Shown piece after piece: positions 1 to 32,000 of a stretch of DNA of 32,000 bases (its first letter is position 1; every line of letters begins with the position of its first letter). A program made the position numbers and the translations under genes. This DNA is from Candidatus Saccharimonadota bacterium (lineage in GTDB: Bacteria > Patescibacteriota > Gracilibacteria > BD1-5 > UBA2023): contig OY970170.1 in NCBI GenBank assembly GCA_963706795.1, positions 90,001 to 122,000 of the forward strand, given 5' to 3'. The notes under the pieces were generated by a model, which searched no databases, was not told the origin of the DNA, and saw only the letters and a program-made list of their open reading frames with translations.

Positions 1-770
1 TCCTCGAAGACGGAACACCAGTAGATATCATCCTCAATCCACTCGGAGTTATCTCACGTATGAATATCGGACAGATTCTCGAATCTCACCTCGGTATGGC
101 AGCGCGCAAGCTCGGTATCAAGATCGCTACACCAATCCTCAATGGAGTTTCTGTTGAAAAGATCGGCGAACTCATGGACCTTGCAGGACTTCCAAACGAT
201 GGAAAGGTTCAACTCTTCGACGGAAAGACGGGAGAACCATTCAAAGAAAAGACAATGGTCGGAGTGAAGTACATGCTCAAACTCCACCACCTCGTAGAAG
301 ACAAGATCCACGCTCGTTCAGTTGGACCATACTCTATGGTTACACAGCAGCCACTCGGAGGTAAGGCACAGAATGGAGGACAGCGTCTCGGAGAAATGGA
401 AGTATGGGCCCTCGAAGGTTACGGAGCGGCAAATATCCTCCAGGAAATGCTCACGATCAAGTCTGACGATATCAACGGACGTGCTCAGTCATACGAAGCG
501 ATTGTCAAAGGAAAGCGAATCCGCCGACCAAATATGCCAGAATCATTCAACGTTCTATTACGTGAACTCCAGGCACTCAATCTCAAGATCGATCTTCTCG
601 AAATCGATCAACTCCGTACAGAAGAAACCGCTCAGATCGAACGCTACATGGAGCTTGAGAAGCTCGAAGGACAATTCGATGTCGAAGTCGATATTCCAAG
701 CGTCGAAGCAGAGAAGACAGAAGGTGAAGGTCAAGAAAAAGTAGTGACCACTGATGAAGAAACCGAGTAG
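1..770 (+). CDS. rpoB: DNA-directed RNA polymerase beta subunit, C-terminal part (5' end outside the window)
   Basis: Frame 3 is open from the window edge. It contains [27 protein letters not shown] and [38 protein letters not shown], both hallmark beta-subunit C-terminal motifs. TAG stop at 768-770. No in-frame TGA. Confidence 0.95.
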
Positions 771-872
771 TCCTACTCATTATTCCCACCAGCATCCAAA
801 CGGTCTCCGGATCGTTTGGGCACACGGGAACCGAAGTCCAGCACTTCCCTTCCAATCCATAATTCTCCCAAT

Positions 873-3800
873 ATGTTTCCAGACAAGAATTTAGAAAATT
901 TCCTCAACGATAAAATCACCGACTACTCTCAGATCGGTAAGCATGCTGGAAAGCGTGATATCACTGCAGGAAAAACCCTCGATAATCTCGCGGGTATCTC
1001 GATCGGACTCGCTTCAAAAGAAGAAGTTCGCGGACTTTCGTACGGAGAAGTTCTCATCTCTGAAACGATCAACTACCGAACACAGCGCCCAGAGCGCGGA
1101 GGTCTCTTCTGTGAGCAGATCTTCGGACCACGCAAAAACTACGAATGTGCGTGTGGAAAATACAAACGAATCCGCTACAAGGGTGTAGTTTGTGAGCGTT
1201 GTGGTGTAGAAGTTACGACTGCTCAGGTACGCCGTCAGCGAACTGGACACATCGAACTCGCCGCTCCAGTTGTACATATTTGGTACCTTAAGTCAGTTCC
1301 TTCTCGTATTGGTCTCCTCCTCGATATTTCTATCAAGAAGCTCGAACAGGTTATCTACTTCGCTTCGTACATCATTACTGAAGTCTACGAAGACAAGCAA
1401 GAATCAGCAGTTGCTGATCTCGAAAATGCCTACAAGACATCAAAGATTGATCTCCAAAAGCGCGTTCAGAAGGATCTTGCTGAAGCAAATATCCAGGTAG
1501 AAGAAAAGAAACTCTCAAAGAAATCATACTCTGAGCTCGAAGCTGCGCTTACGCACCAGATCGACAATCTCGATGAGGAATACGCTCACATGAAGGAACT
1601 CCTCAAGAGTCTCAAGGTTTCAACTGTTATCGGAGAACTCGACTACCGAATCATGTACGACAAATTCCCTCATGTATTTAAGGGAGGAACGGGTGCAGAA
1701 CATATCAAGACTCTCCTTGAGCGTATTGATATACGTGCATTTATTGCCGAACACCAGACTGAGCTCAAGACTGCTCCAAAGTCTAAGCAAAAGAAGATTC
1801 TCCAAAAGCTCAAGCTCGCGTCGAGTCTCTTTAAGTCAAATCAGCGTCCAGAACATTTTGTTCTTGAAGCGATTCAGATCCTTCCACCGGATCTTCGCCC
1901 GATGATTCAGCTCGATGGAGGACGTTTTGCGTCATCTGACCTCAACGATCTCTACCGACGTGTTATCAACCGAAACAACCGTCTCCGCAAGCTTATGGAG
2001 CTCGGAGCTCCTGAGGTTATCCTCAAGAACGAAAAGCGAATGCTCCAAGAAGCAGTCGACATGCTCATCAACGGTGATGTTCGTTCAAACCGACCAGGTT
2101 ATACAACTGCTACAAAGAAAAAGCTCAAGTCACTCGCTGATATCCTCAAGGGTAAGCAGGGACGTTTCCGTCAGAATCTCCTCGGAAAACGTGTCGACTA
2201 CTCAGGACGTTCGGTTATCGTCGTAGGTCCAAGCCTCAAGATGAACGAATGTGGACTTCCAAAGAGTATGGCCCTCGTTCTCTTCCGACCGTTCGTTATC
2301 GGACGCATGATTGAGAAAGAAATCGCCTACAATGTGAAGCACGCTGAAAAGATCATCGAAGATAAGGGAAAAGAAGTATGGGACGCTCTCGACGAAGTAA
2401 TTGAAGGAAAACACGTTCTCCTCAACCGAGCCCCTACTCTTCATCGTCTCGGTATTCAGGCATTCAAGCCAATTCTTATCGAAGGAAAGGCGATCCAGCT
2501 CCACCCTCTCTGCTGTACTGCGTTTAACGCGGACTTCGACGGAGACCAGATGGCGGTTCACCTCCCACTCACCAACGAAGCTCAAGAAGAAGCAGCGTCA
2601 CTCATGGTGACATCTCGCAACATGCTCAATCCAAGTAGTGGAGAGCCAATCGTTGCACCAGGTCTCGACATGGTTCTCGGTTGCTACTACCTTACAAAGT
2701 CAAACAAGACAGAAGCGATCAACTTTTCATTCTCTGACGGAAACGATGCAGAAAATGCATACGACAATGGAGTTATCAAGCTCCAGACTCCAATTCGTCT
2801 CCGAATGGATGGTGTTATCGTAGAGACAACATACGGGCGATATATCTTCAACCAGATTGTTCCTGCCGAGCTCGGATACGTTAATGAAACCCTCGGAAAG
2901 TCAGCTCTTAAGAAGCTCCTCTCACGATCGTTTGATATCCTCGGTTCTGAGCCAACAGCATTCTTCGCTGACCGCATCAAGAATATTGGTTTCAAGTACG
3001 CAACTCTCTCGGGTCTCTCTATCTCCAAAAATGACATGATCGTCCCTGAAACTCAGGACGAGCACATCAAGAACGGTGAAGAGCGAATCAAGGCAATCCA
3101 AAAGGCATTCTGGAACGGTCTCCTCACAGAGCGCGAGCGCTATGAGCAGTCAGTCAAGGTTTGGTCTCAGGTAAAGAACATCATCGAAAAGGAACTTAAG
3201 CCATACTACGACGACACAAACTCGATCTTTAATATGATCGACTCTGGAGCCCGAGGTAACTGGGGTAACGTCACTCAGCTTTGTGGAATGAAGGGTCTCG
3301 TTGCTTCTCCATCAGGAAAGACGATCGAACTCCCAATCAAGGCCAACTATAAGGCGGGTCTCTCAGTTCTTGAATACTTCATCAATACCCATTCAGGACG
3401 TAAGGGTAAGGCCGATACTGCCCTCAAGACCGCTCAGTCAGGATACCTCACACGTCGTCTCGTTGACGCCGCACAAAATATCCTCATCCGTGAGCACGAT
3501 TGTGGAACAGTTCACTACGAAGAAATCCACCGCGAAACTTCAAAGTCTGTCTTCCGCGAATCAATGGACGACAAGATGTTCGGTAAATTCCTTGCAAAGG
3601 ATGTCGTGATTGGTGGTAAGGTTATCATCGAAAGCGGAACAATTATCGACAAGGATGCACTCAAGATTCTTACTGAAAATGCGGTCGAGAGCGTATGCGT
3701 TCGTTCTATCCTCACTTGTGAGACAGAAGAAGGTGTATGTCAGAAATGTTATGGTCTCGATCTCGGTTCTAACCGCCTCGTTACAGAGGGAACTCCAGTT

Positions 3801-30033: not shown

Positions 30034-30601
30034 CGTTCTGTATTACTGGTACCTGGAATGTAATATCCATTTCATCCACTCATCACCATGGGCGTATTTC
30101 TCGGGTGATTTCAACTCCACCAAAACTCTCGGCGAGTGCACGACTTCAGATATTTTTTTCGAGACATCGGTGCATCACACTCTGATACTGTGGATAGGTC
30201 TCGTGCATCCATTTGAGGATCGCAGCATATGCCTCAGATCCATATCCCCTACCCTGAAACTCAGGCGCGAGCCAGAGCCCAATCTCCGGTCCATCGGTAT
30301 CATGAAAATGAAGCCCAATCGTCCCAAGAAACTCGTTAACCGAAGTAGTATAAATAAATCGACTCAGTGCCTTCTTGTAGAATTCTTTTTGGATTTGCCC
30401 TTCTAAGAAGATTTTCTCGGCCTGAATATCTGCTGGAATGTTATAATTTACAAATCGATCAACATTCGCCCTCACAAATTTACCGTACACCTCAGCAACA
30501 TTCTCCGTATGAAACGGCACCAAACGAAGACGCTCAGTCGTGATAATTGTCTTCCAGGTGGTATCTGGATGAAATGTAATGTGAGGCGGAATATTACGCA
30601 T
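30023..30601 (-). CDS. GNAT-family N-acetyltransferase, RimJ/RimL-like (192 aa)
   Basis: ERLRLVPF...LGTIGLHFHDTDGPEIGLWLAPEFQGRGYGSEAYAAILKW is a typical GNAT core. Track ORF 30146..30601 extends through the TGA codons at 30146-30148, 30083-30085 and 30080-30082 to TAG 30023-30025. This restores the expected C-terminal ..EKNI[G]SRALAESFGGVE.. segment. Confidence 0.8.
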
Positions 30602-32000
30602 CCTTTACAACGATAGAGAATAATTTATTTGGTACAAAAATCTCTCGCACAATTACTTTTCCTTCCGTCCATTTTTTGATTTCTTCGCTTGAGTATGCAG
30701 TTGCTGCGACTTCTTCTTGGGCAACGCCATTGAGGAATTCAAAGGTCGCACGGAGTTTACCATTGACCTGGATGGCGATGGTTACGTCATCATCGATAAG
30801 CATAAATTCGTCGTATTCTGGCCACGGTGCGTGCTGGATAGATTCGCTTGAGCTATGACCGATCACATGCCAGAGTTCTTCGGCAATGTGTGGAGCAAAT
30901 GGATGGAGGAGCTTGAGATAGGATTCTTGCCACTCAGTTCGGAATTCTAGATCAGTCGGCACTCCTTCATTCATGAGGATATTGAGCGCTGTGATCGCGG
31001 TATTAAACTTAAAAGCTGGGATATCTTCTCCGACTTTTTTGATGGTTTTGTTGAGGAGCTTCATCGCCTTCATATCATCTGCGGCAGCCTTTGGAGACTC
31101 AGTAAATGAAGCATAAATTCGCTCAAGAAGTCGTTCTGCACCGGCAATTGCGTCGATATTCCAAGGCGATGGATCACGAAAATCTGAGAGTGAGAGCATA
31201 AAGATACGGAATGTATCCGTTCCATATTTTTCGACATCGCGATCTGGATTGACGACATTTCCTTTGGATTTGGACATCTTGTTCCCGTCTGGCCCGAGGA
31301 TGAGACCTGGCGAGAGGAGTTTCGCAAATGGCTCTTCGTTTGGAACCATTCAGATATCAAAAAGAACTTTATGCCAAAATCGTGCATAGAGGAGATGGAG
31401 AACCGCGTGCTCCGCCCCACCAACATACTGATCAACCGATCCCCAGTATTCGGCAACTTCTTTACCGACGAGAGCTTCGGTATTTTTTGGATCCATGAAG
31501 CGGAGATAGTACCAGCATGATCCGCCCCACTGTGGCATCGTGTTCGTCTCACGTTTTCCGGCAAGATTGGATGCAACTTGTACCTGCACGAACGAGTCTA
31601 CGGTCGCAAGTGGCGAGTTTCCATCCCCTGCTGGTTCGTAGCGCTCTACCGCTGGAAGCTCGAGCGGGAGTTTGTAGTCACAGATGATCTTGGTATAGAG
31701 TCCGTCGTGGATTTTGGAGAATTCCTTACCATCAATCATGAGATAATCACCATCATCACGTCCATCAACACTCGCGCCAGCAAGACCTACAGCAAAGTTC
31801 GGAAGTCCTGCCACATCCTTTGGATCAAGATGAATAAGCGGAATTGGCTCACCCCAGTAACGCTGACGAGAGAATAGCCAGTCGCGGAGTTTGTAATTCA
31901 CTTTTTTCTTTCCGAATCCTTCTTGTTCGGCTTTTTCAGTCATTTTGAGACGAGCATCAGCACACGTGAATAGATTAAATTCTCCAGAATTTATCAAAGC
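30594..32000 (-). CDS. leuS: Leucyl-tRNA synthetase, C-terminal ~468 aa (5' end outside the window)
   Basis: Track ORFs 31350..31997 and 30594..31349 share a frame and are joined by one TGA (31350-31352) within ...VLHLLYARFWHKVLFDI[TGA]MVPNEEPFAKLL..., followed by the class I KMSKS motif (GNKMSKSKGN). The frame is open to the window edge. TAA stop at 30594-30596. Confidence 0.92.

Follow-up and report, generated by a model that had tools for sequence, protein, structure and literature searches.

Evidence that UGA is an ordinary glycine codon in a 32-kb stretch of a Gracilibacteria genome

The subject of this report is the genetic code used in a stretch of 32,000 nucleotides (hereafter the window, meaning the whole of this stretch) from contig OY970170.1 of assembly GCA_963706795.1 (positions 90,001 to 122,000 of the forward strand), which is deposited as Candidatus Saccharimonadota bacterium and placed by GTDB within Patescibacteriota; Gracilibacteria; BD1-5; UBA2023. 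We conclude with high confidence that the window comes from a BD1-5-type member of the Gracilibacteria (Patescibacteria, also known as the candidate phyla radiation or CPR) using translation table 25, in which UGA is an ordinary Gly codon and the only stops are UAA and UAG. This was the central claim of a preliminary description made from the letters of the window, and it has been borne out by conserved columns that hold Gly, by the exchange of TGA with GGN codons, by internal repeats and paralogues, and by relatives that are themselves Gracilibacteria. Since UGA=Gly, a recoding known since 2013, is already documented for the lineage, the reading is correct yet not new.

Reading frames that continue through UGA

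With TAA and TAG as sole stops, the window holds 25 open reading frames (ORFs), corresponding to 21 distinct genes plus the duplicated copies of an Rhs cassette. These contain 93 in-frame TGA spread over 19 of the 25 ORFs, and the roughly 95 previously counted by hand was therefore an accurate figure. Because the 1.8-kb Rhs cassette is duplicated, 16 of the 93 lying inside a perfect 1796-bp tandem duplicate, the number of independent TGA sites is ~77. TGA makes up ~12% of the Gly codons of the window and ~0.85% of all its codons. None of the 25 frames shows an internal TAA or TAG or a frameshift, and this is true even of the Rhs gene, with 25 TGA among its 1927 codons. As described earlier, every gene ends in TAA (15 ORFs) or TAG (10 ORFs), although the accompanying statement that no gene requires a TGA stop holds in part by definition, termination at TAA and TAG only being partly circular once TGA has been taken as sense. 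Independent of that circularity are only the six genes free of TGA (rpoB, rpoC, pilT and three others) and the end of the leucyl-tRNA synthetase (LeuRS), which matches the ends of its homologues. The features on which the argument draws are as follows.

6334..7215, - strand: protein resembling pilins of type IV secretion systems (T4SS), 5 TGA, one of them (6499-6501) within the pilin domain
8139..9203, - strand: PilT-type ATPase, no TGA; the anchor used for finding relatives
12342..18122, + strand: Rhs/YD-repeat toxin of 1926 amino acids, 25 in-frame TGA
12507..12866, + strand: FxGxIGDYG repeat units at the Rhs N-terminus, TGA at 12534-12536, 12609-12611 and 12765-12767
17580..18122, + strand: C-terminal toxin domain of Rhs (CT1), 12 TGA in ~180 codons
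24011..24844, - strand: membrane protein, TGA at 24380-24382
24826..26943, - strand: M23 peptidase/glucosaminidase protein, 3 TGA, of which one lies in the signal region and two among the last 12 codons
27440..28072, - strand: RsmG (GidB) methyltransferase, TGA at 27941-27943
28528..29430, - strand: SPFH/Band-7 protein, TGA at 29383-29385 in an N-terminal transmembrane stretch
30023..30601, - strand: GNAT acetyltransferase, TGA at 30146-30148, 30083-30085 and 30080-30082
30594..32000, - strand: C-terminal part of LeuRS (468 residues, running off the window), one TGA at 31350-31352

The idea that conserved proteins are split at TGA and made whole by reading through it was found to hold best for LeuRS, in which the two ORFs obtained with table 11 (30594-31349 and 31350-31997) join at the TGA in ..ARFWHKVLFDI[TGA]MVPNEEPF.. 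and the Pfam match to tRNA-synt_1 covers the junction. It also holds for RsmG and GNAT, since the RsmG TGA falls within the GidB match (positions 4-174 of the 184-position profile) and the first GNAT TGA within that to Acetyltransf_3 (1-136 of 138). A homologue search with the GNAT protein gave four matches, two of them full length, and similarity to these two (..S.ALAE.F.G..) persists past the TGA. The SPFH protein, which had been listed with the others, gains no more than a short transmembrane stretch at its N-terminus. In addition, the Pfam pilin domain spans the TGA at 6499-6501 of the T4SS-pilin-like protein, and there are 11 RHS_repeat matches in Rhs, with TGAs inside the domain region.

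It is conceivable that TGA is a true stop here and that the interrupted genes are pseudogenes or products of sequencing or assembly error, and to this we give next to no credence. Six genes are indeed TGA-free, and stops could be seen in the two TGAs at the end of the M23 gene, but all 93 interruptions are TGA, unaccompanied by TAA, TAG or frameshifts, and they affect essential single-copy genes such as LeuRS and RsmG. Moreover, the interrupted positions are Gly positions, and the same pattern is present in independent assemblies and in relatives.

Glycine at UGA positions

TGA sits at Gly wherever the position is conserved. The LeuRS column, at which Gly had been predicted by comparison with Bacillus-type enzymes, is G in Thermus thermophilus and Escherichia coli (two of the three species compared). 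Most of the evidence on homologous columns came from Rhs, which was compared with 120 database homologues, nine likely Gracilibacteria proteins having been left out because circularity was to be avoided. Four TGA columns of the YD repeats are G in 42-76% of ~110 standard-code homologues: column 554 (TGA 13986-13988) in 46/110, column 734 (14526-14528) in 83/109, column 883 (14973-14975) in 68/110 and column 1088 (15588-15590) in 82/111; four other Rhs TGA columns are variable. The motifs YTYDTV[TGA]R, YSYDVL[TGA]N and DPK[TGA]N are all present as first described, the correction being that the YD-repeat Gly on which TGA falls is the commonest residue and not an invariant one. Across the 23 motifs of Rhs itself, this column is G in 11 and TGA in 2. 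Of the families whose TGA columns were singled out for tabulation in the preliminary description, LeuRS and the YD repeats thus gave Gly, while RsmG gave a variable column.

A calculation in the style of Codetta, a program already named in that description, was made as the product of column emission probabilities over the eight well-covered Rhs TGA columns. On Rhs alone it returned TGA=Gly with a posterior of 0.998, the second-ranked residue, Asn, lying 6.5 nats behind. As a control, the same procedure regained the standard meaning for most other codons, its errors involving only chemically similar residues or codons with few columns.

Repeats and paralogues within the window tell the same story without outside homologues. 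In the FxGxIGDYG units, one Gly column reads GGG/TGA/GGT/TGA/GGT and a second reads TGA/GGA/GGT/GGT/CAG; the reported swapping of GGN and TGA within a column therefore stands, whereas the reported number of six repeats has to be amended to five clear units and a degenerate sixth. In the toxin C-termini, which are three distant paralogues, WYDIG lies opposite WYDA[TGA] and WYDV[TGA], and LSEL[TGA] lies opposite PSNLG.

The comparison with relatives' DNA, fetched through PilT, was made codon by codon and is independent of any translation table. Window TGAs face GGN or TGA in 33/84 aligned cases, a share that rises to 18/25 when only cases with a flank identity of 50% or more are taken, and in the other direction relatives' TGAs face a GGN codon of the window 448 times. 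The pilin column at 6499-6501 is GGN in 9 of 13 relatives, TGA in two and TCN in two; the membrane-protein column at 24380-24382 is GGG, GGC and GGT in the three relatives aligned (3/3); and the RsmG column in Gracilibacteria relatives is TGA twice, GGG once and GCN three times. Among the aligned homologues of the PilT region, in-frame TGA is confined to loci of Gracilibacteria and SR1/Absconditabacterales, in each of which it aligns mostly to Gly of the window; apart from one exception, the 40-odd taxa with the standard code lack it. The relatives differ widely in their use of the codon, TGA making up ~6% of codons in four loci (L011-L014) and ~0.1% or less in two others (L003, L004).

The same data bear on the reading of UGA as Trp (table 4), the code of Mycoplasma and several insect endosymbionts and, more broadly, of Mycoplasmatales, Entomoplasmatales and reduced endosymbionts. 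An automatic public gene call (P0125) does place W at all 13 TGAs of the toxin domain, and no homologue from elsewhere contradicts this, a search with the TGA-dense domain having recovered nothing but the same protein in its table 4 translation. However, TGA and TGG never exchange with relatives in either direction (0 of 84 window TGAs opposite relatives' TGG, 0 of 162 window TGG positions opposite relatives' TGA), Trp accounts for just 0.4% of the homologue residues aligned to Rhs TGAs, the paralogous toxin domains place GGN opposite TGA, and the relatives are Gracilibacteria and not Mycoplasmatales. The window resembles table 4 codes in that UGA is sense and UAA and UAG are the sole stops, and departs from them in that the amino acid is Gly and Trp columns are encoded by TGG. 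We therefore regard UGA=Trp as very improbable, as the preliminary description had argued from the Gly-specific positions.

UGA=Gly also fits the apparent origin of the DNA. The best PilT matches in 185,579 species genomes were metagenome-assembled genomes (MAGs) labelled Candidatus Gracilibacteria with 70-81% identity, some bearing the label Peribacteria or Patescibacteria. The placement is that of one marker and not of a phylogeny. UGA=Gly is established in Gracilibacteria and Absconditabacteria over a GC range of 0.21-0.53 (PMC8629427), table 25 has been defined for the Gracilibacteria clade (PMC8629427; PMC4032931), and proteomics of a BD1-5 bacterium identified 97 peptides unique to UGA-Gly translation against 3 for UGA-Trp (PMC4032931). 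As in these Gracilibacteria (BD1-5) and Absconditabacteria (SR1), the window has in-frame UGA at Gly positions of conserved genes, stops that are UAA or UAG only, Gracilibacteria MAGs as relatives and a GC content (~44%) within the known range; nothing essential is different, this genome simply using TGA sparingly. By extension from the clade literature, UGA would be decoded by a tRNA-Gly with the anticodon UCA, release factor 2 would have been lost, and RF1 alone would terminate translation at UAA and UAG. The identity elements of the table 25 tRNA-Gly(UCA) are G1:C72, C2:G71, G3:C70 and U73.

A number of observations weigh against this picture or narrow its base. By ARAGORN, the window contains no tRNA gene, and none of the 38 related loci scanned yielded a tRNA(UCA). 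The Codetta-style result stands on eight columns of one repeat protein, and when every aligned Rhs TGA column is given equal weight, poorly conserved ones included, Gly comes only narrowly above Ser; the strong Gly signal of Rhs comes from its conserved columns. Single-gene alignments are mixed, the LeuRS column being K in Mycoplasma mobile, the RsmG column E, K, N or R in PDB homologues, and the first GNAT column R or K in PDB matches and A in both of the nearest full-length homologues. Because their columns are variable, RsmG and GNAT show read-through and do not identify the residue. The two TGAs near the end of the M23 gene are the sole site in the window that would also fit a stop. Finally, ~40 TGAs belong to orphan or lineage-specific proteins without homologues elsewhere (the toxin and immunity domains, the orphan ORF, and the lipoprotein-like and repeat ORFs listed below), and their assignment to Gly is extended from the other genes of the window. 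Despite these points, UGA=Gly is favoured over Trp, stop or selenocysteine by every test run.

Uneven use of UGA and the Rhs array

The use of UGA varies greatly from gene to gene, and the following features come into play here.

3..4892, + strand: C-terminus of rpoB, and rpoC, no TGA among 122 Gly codons, stops TAG and TAA; the contrast set for TGA usage
10454..12300, + strand: lipoprotein-like ORF (7 TGA) and secreted repeat ORF (8 TGA), apparently lineage-specific
18800..21699, + strand: duplicated Rhs-CT1/immunity cassette, then a third Rhs-core end joined to toxin CT3, 12 + 1 + 3 + 6 TGA
22337-22645: small transmembrane ORF, 5 TGA against 6 GGN

In rpoB, rpoC and pilT none of 152 Gly codons is TGA, while the other genes have 93 in 650 (Fisher p = 1e-9), and the comparison with the Rhs shell, which is of similar GC, gives 0/97 against 12/184 (p = 0.01). 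The share is 1/33 in LeuRS and 7/13 in the lipoprotein-like ORF, and toxin CT1 has 12 TGA for ~8 GGN, the latter counted by eye. TGA is concentrated in secreted proteins and in the AT-rich Rhs toxin/immunity cassettes, where it amounts to ~45-60% of Gly codons (again with Gly counted by eye), high TGA use going with low GC (0.28-0.39).

Such unevenness could be taken as a sign of selenocysteine insertion or of programmed, context-dependent readthrough, possibly with a double meaning (Gly here, stop there), and this is the one feature of the data that speaks for either. Against them stand the sheer number of sites (93 in 19 genes, with tandem TGATGA among them), the scarcity of Cys in the homologues (4 of 976 residues aligned to Rhs TGAs), the lack of any gene that requires a TGA stop, and an Rfam search of the window that found neither a selenocysteine insertion sequence (SECIS) nor any other RNA element, no Rfam family being matched. 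Selenoprotein genes, with their single UGA at a Cys/Sec position and a SECIS, are not matched by what is seen in the window. Since uneven TGA use goes hand in hand with the low GC of the cassettes, no special mechanism is needed, and we consider selenocysteine or readthrough a most unlikely explanation.

With UGA as plain Gly, the simplest reading of the uneven usage would be base composition or, putatively, import from a UGA-rich relative that uses code 25. A functional or historical cause that is more than a by-product of base composition is considered unlikely, and might take one of two forms. One possibility is that the toxin cassettes circulate only among code-25 bacteria and came from a UGA-rich relative, a confinement which, if true, would amount to a 'genetic firewall' on toxin exchange. 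The other possibility is that UGA is decoded slowly and is hence selected against in highly expressed genes.

In the Rhs array itself, between 17130 and 21116, there is a perfect tandem duplication of a 1796-bp unit (100% identity over ~2 kb at an offset of +1796), which contains an Rhs-core end, toxin CT1, a small transmembrane ORF and a putative immunity ORF, and is followed by a third copy of the Rhs-core end fused to the different toxin CT3 (20596-21699). The duplication may be genuine, in which case it is an orphan toxin/immunity array, or it may have arisen in assembly. Further downstream, at 21900-22200 (+ strand, in the frame of 21601), lies a remnant of a toxin C-terminus, ..ADELPDRAWYDV[TGA]YMYATGQKEG.., distantly homologous (31-34%) to both CT1 and CT3. 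Having no Rhs core ahead of it and being interrupted by TAA/TAG nearby, it probably represents an orphan cassette in decay. In the PilT/YbaB neighbourhood of relatives (14 loci, L001-L014), the M23, membrane-protein and RsmG genes have counterparts, and no homologue was found there of the lipoprotein-like ORF, the repeat ORF or the Rhs array. For this reason the block of ~12 kb (10400-22700) that they form looks like a lineage-specific insertion.

Annotation and other features of the window

What follows from UGA=Gly is of practical value, for annotation, and not of conceptual value. Automatic gene calls made public for this genome are found in the Logan assembly of ERR12037365 (L081, L082, L083) and on a 1.27-Mb contig in NCBI/ENA, and they use table 11 or table 4, neither using table 25. 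Under table 11, 19 of the 25 genes are cut or split: Rhs acquires 25 false stops, LeuRS falls into halves, and GNAT and RsmG are shortened. The warning that any table-11 annotation of the contig would be mostly wrong has proved justified, the public calls showing the truncations expected of it, with a GNAT of 151 amino acids (P0121), a GidB of 156 and a membrane protein in two pieces of 154 and 108. Under table 4, glycines turn into tryptophans, as in the public toxin (P0125) that carries W at every TGA. As the public calls contain both kinds of error, re-annotation with table 25 is needed before the contig is read functionally.

Among the orphan or lineage-specific proteins, the lipoprotein-like and secreted repeat ORFs have no Pfam match at all, which is why read-through in these two is argued from ORF continuity only. 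Another such gene is the following.

4989..6293, + strand: orphan ORF of 434 amino acids, 5 TGA

It has no Pfam match either, and its TGA-free core, searched against 1.84 billion representative proteins, matched solely its own 91-residue fragment as called with table 11. The ORF has a core rich in His and Trp (..NGWMAPDGTIHLCHWHDPGHDPYAPYF..). The window further encodes a second T4SS-pilin-like protein, an acidic protein, YbaB and a protein with M23 and SLH domains.

The TGAs of the M23/glucosaminidase protein carry no information on the amino acid. Its tail (24826-24858, - strand), when read with table 25, overlaps the ATG of the next gene (24844) by 19 nt, whereas with table 11 the stop falls 9 nt ahead of that ATG.

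A last observation concerns another codon. In Absconditabacteria and some Gracilibacteria, CGA/CGG have been reassigned to Trp according to Codetta (PMC8629427), and CGG is likewise very rare in the window, at 7 of ~11,100 codons (positions 6057, 8414, 13494, 18833, 20629, 22759 and 24274) against 83 CGA, 116 CGT and 99 CGC, a count made at 44-47% GC. CGG=Trp was considered on account of this rarity and rejected for the window. Unlike in the lineages with this reassignment, the CGG column of PilT holds Arg in 55 of the 96 relatives and the CGG and CGA codons of relatives lie opposite R or K of the window, from which it follows that CGG still encodes Arg.

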